Shown piece by piece: positions 3,218 through 59,373 of a stretch of DNA of 60,758 nt. Source of the stretch: Minisyncoccota bacterium (GTDB lineage: Bacteria > Patescibacteriota > Minisyncoccia > Phycocordibacterales > XYD1-FULL-46-19); NCBI GenBank assembly GCA_041649495.1, contig JBAZMZ010000004.1:1-60758 (forward strand). Reading direction: 5' to 3'. Both the position numbers and the translations under genes were made by a program. Numbering within the stretch: position 1 is the first letter of the stretch; every line of letters begins with the position of its first letter. The notes under the pieces were generated by a model. It was not told the DNA's origin, made no database searches, and worked only from the letters and a program-made list of their open reading frames with translations.

Positions 3218-3312
3218 ATGAATCCCGTTAGAGGTCGCGATCGCCCCGGGTAGAGGGTAAATCGTGGCCTAAAGTATTATTGTTTTAATCGCGATCTACC
3301 TCTAACGGGATG
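3218..3312 (+). promoter_or_regulatory. Hairpin leader with 11-codon uORF that occludes the rpmI start codon
   Basis: The uORF at 3218-3253 encodes MNPVRGRDRPG. The arm ATCCCGTTAGAGGT (3222-3235) pairs with ACCTCTAACGGGAT (3298-3311). The rpmI ATG is at 3310. A second copy lies upstream of pilB. Confidence 0.6.
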
Positions 3313-14976: not shown

Positions 14977-15046
14977 CTCGAAGTCCGACTTCGGGCTTAC
15001 TTGAAGTCGGACTTCAAACCGCAAGGTTCAACCTTGCGATAGCAAG
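14977..15046. repeat. Repeat module A, copy 1 (two hairpins)
   Basis: GAAGTCCGACTTC gggcttactt GAAGTCGGACTTC, then CCGCAAGGTT c AACCTTGCG. It is near-identical to 46345-46414. Confidence 0.85.
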
Positions 15047-16950: not shown

Positions 16951-17036
16951 AATTTTTAAATTACTCTAATTATTCTAATTTCTAATATTGGGAATTGGGA
17001 GTTTATTTAGGTTAATTAAGTTAATTAGAAATTAGG
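16951..17036. repeat. AT-rich spacer element, family 3 (copy 1 of 4)
   Basis: ...CTAATTATTCTAATTTCTAAT...TTATTTAGGTTAATTAAGTTAATTAGAAATTAGGTTAATT fills the whole rplO-secY spacer. Confidence 0.8.
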
Positions 17037-18088: not shown

Positions 18089-18147
18089 CTTATTTATTTT
18101 TATTTCTTTATTCGTAGCATTCGTATTATTCGTAGATTCGCATCGAT

Positions 18148-19138: not shown

Positions 19139-19531
19139 TTAAAAGATCTCAAATAGTGCTTCGCCCCCCAGCTTAGCCTGACGCGCCTCTTCGCCCGTCA
19201 TAATACCCTTAGAGGTTGAGAGAAAAAGATGGCCGAAACCTTGACGGACAGATTTGACATCACTCGCTTTGAAATAAACTCGGCGGGAGGGATGAGACAA
19301 GCGTTTAACCTGACCAATTTTAGGCTGACCATCAACTGAGATTAATTCACAAGTTAAAAATTTCTTAACTTTTTTCCCTTTGCGCACCACCGACTTAAGA
19401 TAGCCAGCCTTGACCAGGGCCTCGGCGGTCGCCAATTTTAAATTAGAGGCCGGTAAAGTTACGCTCTCGTGCCCGACACGATTACCATTTTTGAGCTGTA
19501 TTAAAAAATCTGAGATTGAGTCGTTTATCAT
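19139..19531 (-). CDS. rpsH: Ribosomal protein uS8
   Basis: MINDSISDFLIQLKNGNRVGH... The track ORF start at 19591 would overlap rpsN, so the ATG at 19531 is preferred. Confidence 0.9.
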   Translation of the reverse strand: MINDSISDFLIQLKNGNRVGHESVTLPASNLKLATAEALVKAGYLKSVVRKGKKVKKFLTCELISVDGQPKIGQVKRLSHPSRRVYFKASDVKSVRQGFGHLFLSTSKGIMTGEEARQAKLGGEALFEIF

Positions 19532-22088: not shown

Positions 22089-22124
22089 GAGGTTAAACCT
22101 CGGGCTCACTAGAGGTTTAACCTC
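22089..22124. repeat. Conserved-loop hairpin family member
   Basis: GAGGTTAAACCTC gggctcacta GAGGTTTAACCTC. The 13-bp stem is perfect. Confidence 0.8.
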
Positions 22125-27455: not shown

Positions 27456-28295
27456 TTAGCGCTTTTTGCCCACTTTGCGACGAGAGGCAATAAGGTGATT
27501 GGAATATTTCTTCGGGTGACGAGTTTTGCGACCGCCGGTGACCTTACCCCACTTCGTCTTCGGACGCTTGGTGCCACGACCCTGAACGCCTTCACCACCA
27601 CCGTAGGGGTGATCCACTGGATTCATCGCGGTACCGCGAACAGTTGGTCGGATACCGAGCCAACGCGAGCGACCCGCTTTGCCCAAATTAACCAATTTGT
27701 GTTCGTCATTAGACACTTCACCAATCGAGGCCCAACTCTTGTCGATAATTTTGCGAATTTCACTCGAAGGCATTTTGACCGAGGTGTAACCAGCATCATG
27801 CGAAACCACTTCAGCGTAAGAACCGGCCGAACGCACCAATTTGGCCCCACTCCCCGGCTTCACTTCAAGATTAAAAATGAAGGTGCCCACCGGAATTTTG
27901 AATAACGGCAAACGATTACCCGGTTTAATGCCGGCGGTTTCGGCCGTCAAAATTATCCCACCCACTTTAATCGCCTTAGGTAAAAGATGGTAACGGCGTT
28001 CGCCATCGCGATAGCAAACTAGGGCGATGAAGCCGGAGCGGTTGGGGTCATACTCCACTGTCTCTACCTTAGCGGGAATGTCAATTTTGTTATAAGAAAA
28101 ATCGATCTCGCGATAAAGTCGCTTGTGGCCACCGCCTTTATGACGAACCGTAATTCGCCCGTCGCTATTACGACCGACATGGCGCTTACCGCCCACCGTT
28201 AGAGGTTTATGAGGTTCGCTCGTCGTCAAATGCTTTCGATAATCAATCGAAACTAATTGGCGACGCGATGGGGTTGTTGGTTGGTATTTCTTCAT
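27456..28295 (-). CDS. rplB: Ribosomal protein uL2
   Basis: 279 aa with ...GGGHKRLYR...MNPVDHPYGGGEG. Confidence 0.95.
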   Translation of the reverse strand: MKKYQPTTPSRRQLVSIDYRKHLTTSEPHKPLTVGGKRHVGRNSDGRITVRHKGGGHKRLYREIDFSYNKIDIPAKVETVEYDPNRSGFIALVCYRDGERRYHLLPKAIKVGGIILTAETAGIKPGNRLPLFKIPVGTFIFNLEVKPGSGAKLVRSAGSYAEVVSHDAGYTSVKMPSSEIRKIIDKSWASIGEVSNDEHKLVNLGKAGRSRWLGIRPTVRGTAMNPVDHPYGGGEGVQGRGTKRPKTKWGKVTGGRKTRHPKKYSNHLIASRRKVGKKR

Positions 28296-46344: not shown

Positions 46345-46414
46345 CTCGAAGTCCAACTTCGGGCTCACTTGAAGTTGGACTTCAAACCGCAAGGTTCAAC
46401 CTTGCGGTAGCAAC
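46345..46414. repeat. Repeat module A, copy 2
   Basis: GAAGTCCAACTTC gggctcactt GAAGTTGGACTTC, then CCGCAAGGTT c AACCTTGCGG. Confidence 0.85.
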
Positions 46415-47990: not shown

Positions 47991-48014
47991 TTTTTACTTA
48001 TTTGCTTATTTACA

Positions 48015-48067
48015 CCCCCCTCACCCGCCAGACCTTGGGCTCACTTAAGGTCTGGCGGGGACGGGGG
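48015..48067. repeat. Conserved-loop hairpin family member (extended stem)
   Basis: CCGCCAGACCTT gggctcactt AAGGTCTGGCGG, with outer CCCCC/GGGGG pairing. It starts right after the pilin stop codon. Confidence 0.85.
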
Positions 48068-50511: not shown

Positions 50512-51749
50512 TCACTTGATCGCATTAGAGAGCGAATACATTGGACCAATCATCGACACCGCAAATAAGCCGACGGCCAAGCCAATAATAATCATCAAGA
50601 CGGGTTCAATCACCGTCGACAAATTTTTGGTCACCTGATCAACTTCATCTTCAAAAAAAACTGCGCCTTTGAGCAAGAGTTCCGGCAATTTACCTGTCTC
50701 TTCGCCAACTGACGACATCTCACTAGCAAAAATCGGGAAAAGATTTTGATGAGCCGAGAAGATAACTGACAAAGAAATACCTTTTTGGACCTTATCGAGA
50801 GCTTCAATCATTACTTGTTGATAATAATAATTTTGCACCACCTTCTTGGTGATGGCCATCGTCTTGGTCAGACTAACGCCCGCCGAGACAGAGAGAAAGT
50901 GGTTCGCATAATCACGGCCGAATTGACCTGACGCGTTAATTTATTAACAAAAGGAATATGCAAAAGCAACCAAGGCATCATCTTCTTACCCCGCCCCGTT
51001 TTCGGCCACCAAAGCAAAAAGATAATAAGTAAAACAAGGCCAGCCAAAACGACGAAGATATTATTAACTAAGAAATCAGACAAACCAATCACCAAACGCG
51101 TCGACAATGGCAAGGGCACATTAAGTTCGCGAAAAGTGGCCGACAAGGTCGAGATCAGAAAAATCATCATCAAAATACCGATCGCGACGATGGCCACGAC
51201 AATCACCGAGGGATAAATCAGAGCGCCAATAATTTTGCGACGCAAGGCATAACTTTTTTCTAATTGCTCACCGATTAATTTGAGGGCTTCGGGCAATTTA
51301 CCCGTCTCTTCGGCCGCGGCGACCATCGCCGTAAAAACCTCGGGGAAAATTTTTGGCCACTTAGCCAAAGCGCCACTCAAACTCTCACCCTTGGCAATGA
51401 GAGCCTCTACTTCGGTTAAAACTTTTTTGAAATATTTATGGCTCGTTTGCCGCGCCATCACCGACAAGGCTCGCGACAAGGGTAAACCAGCGCTAATCAT
51501 CGCGCTCAAATTATTAGCAAAAATAATTTTGTCTTTCATCTTTACCCTGTGGAGTATAATTCGCCAAGAGCGAATTACCGCAAAGCGGTACTCCACAGGG
51601 TGAACCCTATTATTTTTTACTTCTTCCACTACTAAAGCAATCAAACCTTCGGCACGCAATTCGCGGGCCAAACTAAAACGGTCAACGGATTCTCGAGTCC
51701 CCGAAATTTCTTCGCCATTAGCCCTTTTCGCCCTAAAATTGAAAATCAT
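50512..51749 (-). pseudogene. pilC: PilC/GspF-family platform protein split by a frame shift (ORFs 50868-51749 and 50512-50859)
   Basis: The first GspF domain (FANNLSAMISAGLPLSRAL...AAEETGKLPEAL) is in one frame. The second (FLSVSAGVSLTKTMAI...VGEETGKLPELL) is in the adjacent frame, which is open from about 50935. Confidence 0.75.
51545..51600. repeat. 56-nt nested palindrome lying in-frame inside pilC
   Basis: CCCTGTGGAGTA ... TACTCCACAGGG, with inner AATTCGC/GCGAATT and ACCGC/GCGGT stems. Confidence 0.8.
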
Positions 51750-51767: not shown

Positions 51768-51803
51768 CCCGCCAGACCTTGGGCTCACTTAAGGTCTGGC
51801 GGG
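51768..51803. repeat. Conserved-loop hairpin family member
   Basis: CCCGCCAGACCTT gggctcactt AAGGTCTGGCGGG, lying between pilB and pilC. Confidence 0.85.
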
Positions 51804-51814
51804 AAAGTGAGGGG

Positions 51815-53584
51815 TCATTCCGTCACCGCTCGAAGCACTTCCTCGATCGTTGTCACGCCTTGAACCGCTTTGAAAATGCCGTCTTCAAGCATCGTTAACA
51901 TCCCCTCGCTTCGGGCTTGCTCGGCCAAATCTTCGGCCGAGGCCCCCTTAATAATCAAATCGCGCAAGGTCCGGCTCACACCCAAAACTTCGCTAATACT
52001 CACTCGGCCGGCATAACCGTCAGAACAAGTTGTCGCTCCACTCGCCACTTTGGGATGATAAAAAGAAATCGTGCTCCAAGTATCAGTGGGTTTGATAATT
52101 TTTTCTTTCTTCAAACAATCTAACACGCGCTCAAGATTAGCCTTGGTGGCCAAACTTTTGATTTCAGCCTCGGTAGGATGATAAGCCTCGCGCTCGGGAC
52201 AAAGTCGGCGAACGAGGCGCTGGGCCACAATCACCTCCAAAGTAGAGACCAAGAGAAAAGGTTCGGCCCCCAAATCAAGCAAACGCGGAATCGTGCCGGC
52301 CGCTGAATTAGTGTGGAGCGTCGAGAGAACCAAGTGGCCAGTGAGTGAAGCATTGATCGCCAAACCCGAAGTTTCGCGATCACGAATTTCGCCCACCATA
52401 ATAATGTCCGGGTCCTGGCGAACGAGCGTTCGCAAACCAGTCGCAAAAGTCAAACCAATATCGGGTCGAACTTGGGTTTGATTAATGCGTGAAATTTGAT
52501 ACTCAATCGGGTCTTCAATCGTCGAGATATTAACATCCGGTGTATTTAAAATATCGAGCAAAGCGTAAAGCGTCGTCGACTTACCCGAGCCGGTTGGGCC
52601 GGTCACTAAAACTAAGCCCATAGTTCGCTTCACCGCTTGCTGAATTTTTTCTAAACCTTCGCCGTGAAAACCGACCGACTCAAGCGTGTAACCATGGACC
52701 GAATCAGGTAAGAGACGCATCACGACCTTCTCGCCAAATTGCGTCGGTAAAGTCGAAACCCGAAACGAAACATTTTGGCCATGCGTTTCAATCTTGAAGC
52801 GACCATCTTGAGGTAAACGCTTTTCGTCTAATCGCAAATTCGACAATACCTTAATGCGGGCCGTAATCCCGGGCGCCGTTTTTTTGGGTAAAATCATCGC
52901 GTCATGCAAAATCCCGTCCAAGCGATAGCGAATAACCAACTCATTTTCAAACGGCTCAATATGAATATCCGACGCCTTTTGCAAAATCGCGTGGGCCAAA
53001 AGCGAATCCACCATCCGCACGACCGGCAAATCTTCGGCGATTTTCGCCAAATCGTCACTTTTTGACTCACCCCCCAAATCACCCTCGGCCAAATCAGCTA
53101 AAGGGTTCGGCAAATTATTTGATTCTTTCTGGATAATATCACCAAAATCAGCTTTGAGACTTTTCTGATATTGCACCAGCGCATTCTTCATCGATTCTGT
53201 ATCAGTCAAACGCGGTAAAATTTTCAGCGAACTCCCCTTCTTGATAAAATCAATGGCCTCTAAATCAAGCGGATCAAGCATCGCGATCTCCAATGTCTCG
53301 CCCGTCTTTTTATAGGCCACCAAATTATGTTTACGCGCCAACGGTTCGGGAATCAAGGCCAAAATATCTTTCGGAATTCGTTCCTTTTTCAAATCCACAA
53401 ACGGAATCCCCAAAACATACGACTTAGCCCGCCGTAAATCATCCTCGATCAGGAAACCTTTGCCAATCAGCAAATCTTCAATTCGCGCGCCAGAACTTTC
53501 TGCCTCCGCCTCAACCACCGCAAAATCTTTCGCTGTCACCAAACGCGAATCAATCAAAAAATTTTTTAATGGTTCAATTTCCAT
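51815..53584 (-). CDS. pilB: Type IV pilus assembly ATPase PilB (GspE family)
   Basis: Has a T2SSE N-domain, Walker A (GPTGSGKST), and Asp and His boxes. Confidence 0.95.
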   Translation of the reverse strand: MEIEPLKNFLIDSRLVTAKDFAVVEAEAESSGARIEDLLIGKGFLIEDDLRRAKSYVLGIPFVDLKKERIPKDILALIPEPLARKHNLVAYKKTGETLEIAMLDPLDLEAIDFIKKGSSLKILPRLTDTESMKNALVQYQKSLKADFGDIIQKESNNLPNPLADLAEGDLGGESKSDDLAKIAEDLPVVRMVDSLLAHAILQKASDIHIEPFENELVIRYRLDGILHDAMILPKKTAPGITARIKVLSNLRLDEKRLPQDGRFKIETHGQNVSFRVSTLPTQFGEKVVMRLLPDSVHGYTLESVGFHGEGLEKIQQAVKRTMGLVLVTGPTGSGKSTTLYALLDILNTPDVNISTIEDPIEYQISRINQTQVRPDIGLTFATGLRTLVRQDPDIIMVGEIRDRETSGLAINASLTGHLVLSTLHTNSAAGTIPRLLDLGAEPFLLVSTLEVIVAQRLVRRLCPEREAYHPTEAEIKSLATKANLERVLDCLKKEKIIKPTDTWSTISFYHPKVASGATTCSDGYAGRVSISEVLGVSRTLRDLIIKGASAEDLAEQARSEGMLTMLEDGIFKAVQGVTTIEEVLRAVTE

Positions 53585-53704
53585 CCCGTTAGAGGCAGAT
53601 TACGATCGATAAATCGTCATCTAACATTATTTTGTCTTCTAATAATATTTTAAACATATTTTTTAAAAAGCTTAATGGTGATCGTGGCCTCTAACGGGAT
53701 CCAT
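53583..53704 (-). promoter_or_regulatory. Second copy of the uORF-hairpin leader, occluding the pilB start codon
   Basis: The uORF at 53704-53672 encodes MDPVRGHDHH. The arms are 53687-53700 and 53583-53596 (GCCTCTAACGGGAT/ATCCCGTTAGAGGC). The pilB ATG is at 53584. Confidence 0.6.
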
Positions 53705-58266: not shown

Positions 58267-59373
58267 ATGGTCAAATTACCCAAAATTGATATCCAGCCGA
58301 CCGGCGAAGGCGAAATTGAGCTTTCGGCCGAGTTAGAAGTCGAGATTTTTAATGGTTATCGCGACCAAGCTCTCAAGGCGCTCGGCGCTGATGCCAAAAT
58401 CGATGGCTTTCGTCCTGGCCATATCCCCGAAAAGGTCCTGATTGAACAATTGGGTGAAGAAAAGGTGTTGTGGGAAATGGCGCAACAAGCCATCGCCGAT
58501 TATTATCCGGCTATTTTACAAGAACATAAGATTCCGGCCATTGGTCAACCGCAAGTGACAATTACCAAAATTGCCAAGGATAATCCGCTCGGTTTCAAAA
58601 TCAAAACCGCCGTGATGCCCGAGATCAAAATTGGCGATTATAAAAAGATCGCCCAAAAAGCCAATGAACTTGGAGGCGAAACCTCGAAATCCCCAGAGGT
58701 TTCACCTCCAAGTCTGACTGCCAGCGACGAGGAAATCAACAAGGTTATTGAAGAATTACGTCGCAGTCGCGCCACGGTTGACCATTCTGAGCACGAACAT
58801 AAAGAAGATGAGAAGTGCGATCACTCTACACCAGAACTACCAAAAGAAGCTGAATTGCCCGAGCTCACCGACGAATTTGCCCAAAGCTTGGGTCAATTTA
58901 AAACTGTTGACGAACTCAAAGCCAAGATCAAAGAAAATCTCGAATTAGAAAAAAAGAATAAAGCCAAAGACAAAAAACGAGTCGAAATTGTTGAAGAAAT
59001 AATCAAAGCTTCCGAGATAAAAATTGCCAATCTTTTGGTTGACAGCGAAAAAGAAAAAATGCTGGCCGAGATGGAATCACAGATTGGTTATATGGGCCTC
59101 AAGTTTGACGATTATCTCGCCCATCTGAAAAAAACTCGCGACGAATTAAAGAGTGGCTGGGACAAAGAGGCTCGCCAACGCGTTGCTTTTGGTCTCGTCC
59201 TCGCCGAGATTGCCAAATTAGAAAAGATTGAAGCCCCCGAAGAAGAGCTCAAACGCGAAATTGACTACCTCAAGAACCAGTACAAAGATGTCCCCGAAGA
59301 TCGCCTCCGCGCCTACGCCTCTAGCCTCCTCATCAACGAAAAAGTGTTCGAGTTTTTGGAAAATCAAAAATAA
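58267..59373 (+). CDS. tig: Trigger factor lacking the FKBP/PPIase domain
   Basis: The N-domain has DGFRPGHIP. A C-terminal arm domain is present. The middle PPIase segment is replaced by a short acidic/His linker. Confidence 0.8.
   Translation: MVKLPKIDIQPTGEGEIELSAELEVEIFNGYRDQALKALGADAKIDGFRPGHIPEKVLIEQLGEEKVLWEMAQQAIADYYPAILQEHKIPAIGQPQVTITKIAKDNPLGFKIKTAVMPEIKIGDYKKIAQKANELGGETSKSPEVSPPSLTASDEEINKVIEELRRSRATVDHSEHEHKEDEKCDHSTPELPKEAELPELTDEFAQSLGQFKTVDELKAKIKENLELEKKNKAKDKKRVEIVEEIIKASEIKIANLLVDSEKEKMLAEMESQIGYMGLKFDDYLAHLKKTRDELKSGWDKEARQRVAFGLVLAEIAKLEKIEAPEEELKREIDYLKNQYKDVPEDRLRAYASSLLINEKVFEFLENQK

Follow-up and report, generated by a model that had tools for sequence, protein, structure and literature searches.

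Correia elements (CREE or NEMIS) and other bacterial miniature inverted-repeat transposable elements (MITEs) are about 100-150 bp long, carry terminal inverted repeats, encode no transposase, and lie between short target-site duplications; they occur in many copies, are co-transcribed with their neighbors, and form long RNA hairpins able to alter expression. REPINs, which are moved by RAYTs, pair two conserved sequences of about 25 nt in inverted orientation, separated by a variable spacer, to a total of about 100 nt, and fold into asymmetric (bulged) hairpins with compensatory changes between subfamilies. Rickettsia palindromic elements (RPEs) are palindromic mobile repeats that are tolerated in genes. 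In leader-cistron translational coupling, as in natural overlapping stop-start pairs and in the synthetic 'bicistronic design' reportedly described by Mutalik et al. in 2013, a short upstream open reading frame (ORF) ends at or next to the gene start, and ribosomes unfold the structure there and reinitiate. T4 gene 60 and the yeast mitochondrial 'byps', which are also mobile, have a hairpin-forming insert between identical codons. Each of these systems resembles in part an element that overlaps the start codon of pilB, the gene for a type IV pilus assembly ATPase, in a 60,758 nt stretch of DNA (the window) from contig JBAZMZ010000004.1 of a Minisyncoccota bacterium. The element is mobile, its insertion duplicated the target, and the current pilB start codon is a chimera of element and duplicated sequence. 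A non-autonomous insertion of the MITE kind, combined with a translational relay, is very probably the best explanation of the whole; the relay, taken by itself, is less secure.

The initial annotation described this region as the second copy of a leader composed of an upstream ORF (uORF) and a hairpin, the other copy standing in front of rpmI at 3218..3312, and the architecture it described can be read directly. The minus strand from 53704 to 53582 is ATGGA-T-CCCGTTAGAGGC...GCCTCTAACGGG-ATGGAA, where the last ATG begins pilB, and the uORF reads ATG GAT CCC GTT AGA GGC CAC GAT CAC CAT TAA. AUCCCGUUAGAGGC (53700..53687) pairs at every base with GCCUCUAACGGGAU (53596..53583), giving 14 bp across an interval of 90 nt that is AT-rich, as had been claimed. 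The final two bases of GCCUCUAACGGGAU, A and U, belong to the pilB AUG, which places the start codon inside the stem. The ATCT bulge and a second helix of 6 bp, with a C.A mismatch before it, were likewise read as claimed. Folding yields -42.5 kcal/mol (z = -4.35; none of 200 shuffles is as stable), and the predicted unpaired probability of the pilB AUG is 0.21 with the element vs 0.64-0.70 at the empty sites described below. The rpmI copy, at a locus where the identities of infC, rpmI and rplT were confirmed, has the arm, bulge and second helix in common with the pilB copy, an unrelated loop, and a folding z of -2.96. The pair at the foot of the arm shows a compensatory change between the two, being U-A in the rpmI copy and C-G in the pilB copy. 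The rpmI copy has the uORF only and no internal ORF starting with ATG. The exact 13-mer arm occurs four times in the window, confined to the pilB and rpmI copies, and a profile search of the window returns the same two copies only. With up to two mismatches allowed, 0.97 arm matches are expected in the window and five were reached in 0 of 100 shuffles. Arm-like matches at 28195, inside a coding region, and at 19203, with two mismatches, were rejected as chance.

Orthologous sites that lack the element make it very likely that the pilB feature is a mobile insertion, not a dedicated leader. Two pilB orthologues, 92% and 89% identical (loci L166 and L167), have no element; the site reads TTTAGTTT joined to ATGGAAATTGAA (given also as TTTAGTTT joined to ATGGAAATT), or more widely ...TTTTAGTTT joined to ATGGAAATTGAA..., and the upstream leader is otherwise alignable with that of the window. 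The same comparison is available for RNase J, where an orthologue 93% identical (L174) reads ATGAACGAAGAG and the filled site (L154) reads ATGAA-C-element-G-TGAACGAAGAA, the start codon having changed from ATG to GTG. At rpmI, the element is absent from the infC-rpmI spacer of four relatives (L170-L173) whose IF3 proteins are 95-80% identical; this comparison includes an extra rearrangement, the loss of a small native hairpin from the window leader. In L171-L173 that hairpin (GTCCCGTC..GACGGGAT or GTCCGCC..GGCGGAT) lies some 10 nt upstream of the rpmI start codon. The foot of the hairpin (TCCCG..CGGGA) is similar to the element ends, and L173 also has CCCGTTAGGGG there, possibly by coincidence.

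The element belongs to a family that is widespread in Patescibacteria and previously undescribed in Rfam and the searchable literature. An exact scan of one genome per species, with the 3' arm, bulge and ATG as the query, found 43 loci, 35 of which also have the 5' arm at the correct distance. These 35 come from metagenome-assembled genomes (MAGs) of several classes of Patescibacteria (Saccharibacteria, Paceibacterota, and Giovannoni-, Vogel-, Terry-, Lipton- and Harrisonbacteria), except for one short contig binned as Gammaproteobacteria; the eight loci without a 5' arm, mostly from other phyla, look like chance matches. A metagenome scan used the two 11-nt arms alone as its query, with neither ATG nor bulge specified. 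Together the scans yielded at least 150 non-redundant copies, so the further copies that the initial annotation called for do exist. Besides MAGs, the sources are groundwater or sediment metagenomes; a scan of viral contigs gave no matches. All per-copy counts reported here are among the matches listed. Further copies are present in the DNA contigs of four metagenome runs, in which no empty-site joint for the pilB locus of the window was found. Searches of Rfam with the whole window at the gathering threshold and with the region at E <= 10 returned only tmRNA and chance miRNA matches, and a literature search on MITEs of the candidate phyla radiation (CPR), start-codon insertions and the arm sequence found nothing relevant.

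Family members are 77-218 nt long, and the only ORFs inside them have 41 codons or fewer. In the terminal inverted repeats, (T/C)CCCGTTAGAGG(Y) pairs with (R)CCTCTAACGGG(A/G), perfectly over 12-14 bp, and a second conserved block, about 7 bp long, follows. About 25 nt are conserved at each end; the interiors are AT-rich and mostly unalignable. Subfamilies carry matched changes in the second helix (CGCGATC/GATCGCG+ATCT, CGCGGTC/GACCGCG+ACCT, and others). One MAG (DASZYS01) holds at least four copies, where the window holds two. A composite copy of 217 nt, 90% identical, occurs at two different genes of one MAG (L014 2638-2855 and L025 6642-6858). At both loci an element of a second family, with ends CCCGTTTAGAAAT, sits inside the 3' portion of the first and is flanked by a TCTG duplication, and the composite has moved as one unit.

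Well-preserved copies all have the form x1-[x2..x5]-n-CCCGTTAGAGG...CCTCTAACGGG-n'-[x2..x5], in which x2..x5 is a direct repeat specific to each copy. Among 100 copies at gene starts, the repeat is a perfect 4 nt in 67, 3 nt in 11 and 5 nt in 2, with TGAA (45), TGGA (14) and TGAG (6) as the repeat sequences. The terminal pair n..n' is T..A in 84 copies and C..G in 16; where it is C..G, the gene starts with GTG and the upstream copy is still ATG. The downstream start codon is chimeric because it is composed of the last base of the element (A or G) followed by the duplicated TG; in pilB, the final base of the element, A53584, is the first base of the current start codon. A mechanism of the IS200/IS605 type, with insertion beside the target and no duplication, was rejected because the repeat co-varies on the two flanks and comparison with the empty sites shows the duplication to be genuine. 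Four traits of a MITE are present: small size without a transposase gene, terminal inverted repeats, a duplication relative to the empty site, and many unrelated sites.

At least 100 of the 150 listed copies coincide exactly with the start of an ORF that has 60 codons or more; if the intergenic TGRR sites of the window were hit equally, about 18% would be expected on start codons. Orientation is nearly uniform: the bulge end is the one nearer the gene in 81 copies and the farther one in 6. The genes that follow are unrelated to one another (96 of them represent 124 Pfam families) and include those for tRNA synthetases, topoisomerase, L4, L7/L12, IF3, NusB, FtsH and SHMT. The bias toward start codons may come from targeting or from the survival of harmless insertions.

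Other placements were also observed. At L057, L144, L147, L150 and L165 the flanks read GTTGAC...GTTGACA; here a -35-like TTGACA has been hit, and duplication of the target restores this hexamer on the downstream side. In L141 (5400-5900 and 1150-2400), type IV pilin genes carry in-frame insertions of related elements that share the 11-nt ends; these lie at the G-FT codons and are flanked by a TTCA duplication. Two tandem copies leave the reading frame open, so the added residues would fall in the leader cut off by prepilin peptidase. This is the point of likeness to RPEs. RPEs, however, are translated within the host protein, whereas most copies here precede the coding sequence, with a stop codon between. 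At L023 (4885-5150), the first 17 codons of the downstream YmdB-like gene are present a second time, in diverged form, immediately upstream of the element; the two versions differ mainly at third positions, which suggests recombination between alleles at the element.

These features set the family apart from its nearest counterparts. Correia elements have other end sequences and duplicate TA, where the duplication here is TNNA (mostly TGAA or TGGA); their host is Neisseria, not Patescibacteria without Shine-Dalgarno (SD) signals. At least two thirds of the copies described here sit exactly on start codons in one orientation, the last base of the element rebuilds the start codon, and the ORF that the element carries ends 4 nt ahead of it. 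The family is therefore not a group of Correia elements. REPINs are extragenic, make no target duplication and have a GTAG motif, whereas the present element shows duplication at three empty sites and overlaps start codons. A RAYT gene was not seen either, though the search for one was not exhaustive, and we do not assign the family to REPINs or REP-RAYT systems.

Beyond the arms, it is an open frame that looks selected in these sequences, not a peptide. The 3' arm gives CUC UAA CGGG AUG, and because the UAA belongs to the arm it stands 4 nt ahead of the gene start in every copy (53591..53589 in the pilB copy). This spacing fits a termination-reinitiation unit (translational coupling), in which only a few nt separate the upstream stop from the next start. 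On the sense strand of start-site copies, the frame of the UAA is open for a median of 23.5 codons, compared with 11-12.5 codons in the other two frames and 15.5 on the antisense strand. An ORF of at least 10 codons that starts with ATG and ends at the arm UAA occurs in 51 of 100 start-site copies, against a mean of 16.3±3.5 and a maximum of 28 in 500 shuffles of the interiors. When the element alone is scored, the count is 48 of 100 on the sense strand, 10 of 100 on the antisense strand, and 8 of 78 in copies not at starts (Fisher p = 3e-9). A uORF that begins at the duplicated ATG reads through the whole element in 16 of the 41 copies where it is in the right frame and in 1 of 43 where it is not. 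An AUG in the loop begins the ORF ending at UAA in 36 copies. Where both ORFs are present, the internal AUG lies at -14..+18 nt from the stop of the first in 24 of 29 copies.

The peptide motif proposed in the initial annotation, M-(N/D)-P-V-R-G-(R/H)-D-(R/H), did not survive comparison across the family. Arms remain intact where the upstream ATG has been lost to ACG, ATA, CTT and others (L005, L011, L035, L041 and L066), and 3-nt repeats shift the uORF frame in copies of the ATGAT class (MIPLE...). Since the arms persist without the ATG or in another frame, M-(N/D/S)-P-V-R-G is the mere translation of ATG-RR-T plus the invariant arm, and conservation of the uORF peptide was rejected. Copies with a disrupted uORF and persisting arms had been named beforehand as a sign of a pure RNA or MITE element, and they are what was found.

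The host context bears on how a gene so interrupted could be expressed. SD-like motifs precede 6.8% of the 74 predicted genes of the window vs 6.9% of random 15-mers, and start contexts in the window are AU-rich; at hit sites across the family, the corresponding values are 7% vs 11%. The anti-SD motif has been lost in part of the Parcubacteria, according to a published survey (PMC9297842). With no SD signal, an AUG enclosed in a GC-rich stem would be expected to work poorly, and a plausible remedy is a cistron that begins in AU-rich sequence and ends beside the buried AUG.

We propose the following course of events at pilB. The element entered the TGGA that overlaps the pilB start codon (A-TGGA-A) and duplicated it, presumably through a transposase making staggered cuts of 3-5 nt (TNA / TNNA). 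The old ATG now heads a uORF of 10 codons running into the element, whose ends form an RNA stem of 14 + 6 bp that pairs the pilB AUG. Ribosomes may bind first in AU-rich sequence, either the native leader or the loop, and translate first the uORF and then the short ORF that leads to the arm UAA (uORF1 and sORF2 in the table). Translation would melt the stem, and ribosomes stopping 4 nt ahead of the pilB AUG could reinitiate there. The element would in this way bring its own translational-coupling cistron, which would explain its tolerance on essential genes. That ORF-mediated coupling is how the hit gene is expressed we regard as an even proposition, and it differs from known leader-cistron coupling in being carried by a mobile element, in lacking an SD sequence, and in that its function is suggested by sequence statistics.

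A more specialized version is conceivable, and we hold it tentatively, as somewhat less probable than its negation. According to this version, the family is specialized for start codons: it would actively target A-TGRA in Patescibacteria without SD signals, rebuild the start, and supply a relay cistron leading to UAA-N4-AUG. If so, it would be a natural transposable bicistronic expression cassette, and hosts may have co-opted it to set translation levels.

Mobile insertion accounts for the occurrence of one apparent leader at two unrelated operons, which the initial annotation had taken as sharing between a ribosomal-protein operon and pilB. That part of its description does not stand: the element is absent in close relatives, is flanked by duplications, and occurs at some 100 unrelated genes. 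The uORF and the hairpin that pairs with the AUG are real and translation of small ORFs does seem to matter, but they do not constitute a conserved cis-regulatory leader. A dedicated attenuator, in which the peptide or hairpin senses a signal and co-regulates the rpmI-rplT operon and pilB, would fit the presence of a uORF and an AUG-sequestering hairpin at two genes, the compensatory change that separates these copies, and the signs of selection on small ORFs. We nevertheless consider it highly improbable. The conserved-leader reading is refuted by the orthologous sequences of close relatives, which lack the element; added to this are the flanking duplications, the 124 Pfam families without a common theme, an unconserved loop, a peptide frame that varies between copies, and no Rfam family. 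Assignment to riboswitches, attenuators or L20-type leaders fails in the same way, the element being missing at the orthologues of relatives, the genes incoherent, and Rfam without a match. Translational bypassing, in which a ribosome from the upstream AUG slides over the hairpin and lands on the identical AUG-GA at its 3' foot, draws on the identity of take-off and landing sites (the duplicated target, ATGGA...ATGGA) at the feet of a stable stem. It is hardly credible, however, since there is neither a nascent-peptide signal nor a stop codon after the take-off codon, the element of about 116 nt is more than twice as long as known bypassed gaps, the landing codon in C..G copies is GTG and not ATG, and the enrichment of ORFs ending at UAA points to ordinary translation. 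No indication of hopping was seen, which also separates the element from T4 gene 60 and the byps.

Several observations weigh against the combination of mobile insertion and relay. The length of the duplication is not fixed (3, 4 or 5 nt), and of 100 start-site copies 20 have imperfect flanks. A search of 175 loci for arms with up to two mismatches, spaced 300-3500 nt apart and enclosing a gene, found no convincing autonomous element or transposase bounded by these ends, nor were transposase domains found among the neighboring genes of the window. About half of the start-site copies, the rpmI copy included, have no ATG-initiated ORF ending at the UAA, and coupling therefore cannot be the sole route to expression. 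Copies share ancestry and their counts are not fully independent, though interiors are mostly less than 85% alike. The upstream ATG is kept visibly no better than the neighboring duplicated bases. In the second helix, on the mRNA strand, A.C mismatches outnumber G.U (48 vs 27), which gives no sign that RNA pairing is selected beyond the DNA inverted repeat. By these sequence comparisons, neither the peptide nor RNA-specific pairing shows selection.

The copies without an ORF to the UAA, the lack of an excess of G.U over A.C and the ordinary conservation of the upstream ATG also speak for a purely selfish MITE, whose ORFs would be accidental and whose hairpin would be removed by RNase III cleavage or avoided by a promoter in the loop, leaving mRNA with the 3' arm only. 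Correia elements of Neisseria carry promoters and RNase III sites, and the loop of the pilB copy has a weak promoter-like match, TTTAAA-17-AATAAT (9/12). We judge this possibility unlikely, though by no means negligible: ORFs ending at UAA are three times as common as in shuffles, an excess peculiar to the sense strand of start-site copies; -10-like hexamers occur as often on one strand as on the other and at no fixed position; and the rpmI copy has no promoter match.

The mobile insertion with its proposed relay matters in several ways. It illustrates clearly how a transposable element can land safely on a start codon; that codon is retained through duplication of the target, and the sequence of the element appears to restore translation. 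The same explanation would cover hundreds of similar hairpins in Patescibacteria that annotation pipelines leave unmarked or mis-call as gene starts. Through the element one could approach translation initiation and reinitiation in bacteria without an SD mechanism, in the uncultivated CPR lineages, and its conserved 25-nt ends can serve as a probe for the transposase and for gene flow between CPR classes. Coordinates for both copies in the window are collected in the table.

Table. Coordinates, in the window, of the pilB and rpmI copies of the element and their parts.
Feature	Position	Strand	Remarks
Upstream ATGGA	53700..53704	-	Original pilB start codon plus 2 nt; empty sites L166/L167
Left target-site duplication, TGGA	53703..53700	-	
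Inserted element, 116 nt	53584..53699	-	T-CCCGTTAGAGG ... CCTCTAACGGG-A; terminal inverted repeats perfect over 12 nt
5' arm / left terminal inverted repeat	53687..53699	-	U CCCGUUAGAGG C
uORF1, 10 codons	53672..53704	-	MDPVRGHDHH, then stop; from the duplicated original start codon
Second helix, 5' strand	53680..53685	-	ACGAUC
sORF2	53589..53657	-	MFKILLEDKIMLDDDLSIVICL, then stop; AUG in the AT-rich loop, 14 nt past the uORF1 stop; ends at the 3'-arm UAA
Second helix, 3' strand	53602..53607	-	GAUCGU
AUCU bulge	53597..53600	-	3' side only; marks element orientation
3' arm / right terminal inverted repeat	53584..53596	-	G CCUCUAACGGG A
pilB start codon, ATG	53584..53582	-	
Right target-site duplication, TGGA	53580..53583	-	Its TG completes the pilB start codon
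pilB, type IV pilus assembly ATPase	51815..53584	-	Pfam T2SSE 8e-123 and MshEN
Copy at the rpmI start codon	3218..3314	+	ATGAA-T-CCCGTTAGAGGT...ACCTCTAACGGG-ATGAA
rpmI-copy element, 88 nt	3223..3310	+	Duplication TGAA
rpmI-copy uORF1	3218..3253	+	MNPVRGRDRPG, then stop

The window contains other repeats. A second repeated hairpin family occurs at 14980-15015, 22089-22124, 46348-46383, 48012-48059, 51768-51815 and 58673-58708. Its loop is near-constant (GGGCTCACT), and its stems vary between copies yet stay complementary. One of these hairpins lies between the pilB stop and the pilC start; it could be of a terminator type or a protein-binding RNA. Three families of direct repeats, 30-90 nt in length (TTATTCGTAGATTCGCA.., TAGTATATAGGGATTAGTAT.., and AATTATTCTAATTTCTAA..TTAGGTTAATTAAG...), have one set of positions at 18100, 24760, 28300, 50464, 10811, 19807(-) and 56769(-), another at 675, 17474, 19105, 24239, 25923 and 35455(-), and a third at 16959, 23363, 23772 and 26317. 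They stand directly upstream of genes of the ribosomal-protein cluster and look like shared promoter or leader modules. Finally, pilC (T2SSF; 50512-51749, minus strand) has a frameshift near 50860 that divides it into ORFs of 293 and 115 codons. Its orthologues are single proteins of 409-412 aa, and the split in the window may represent a pseudogene, an assembly error or a programmed shift.

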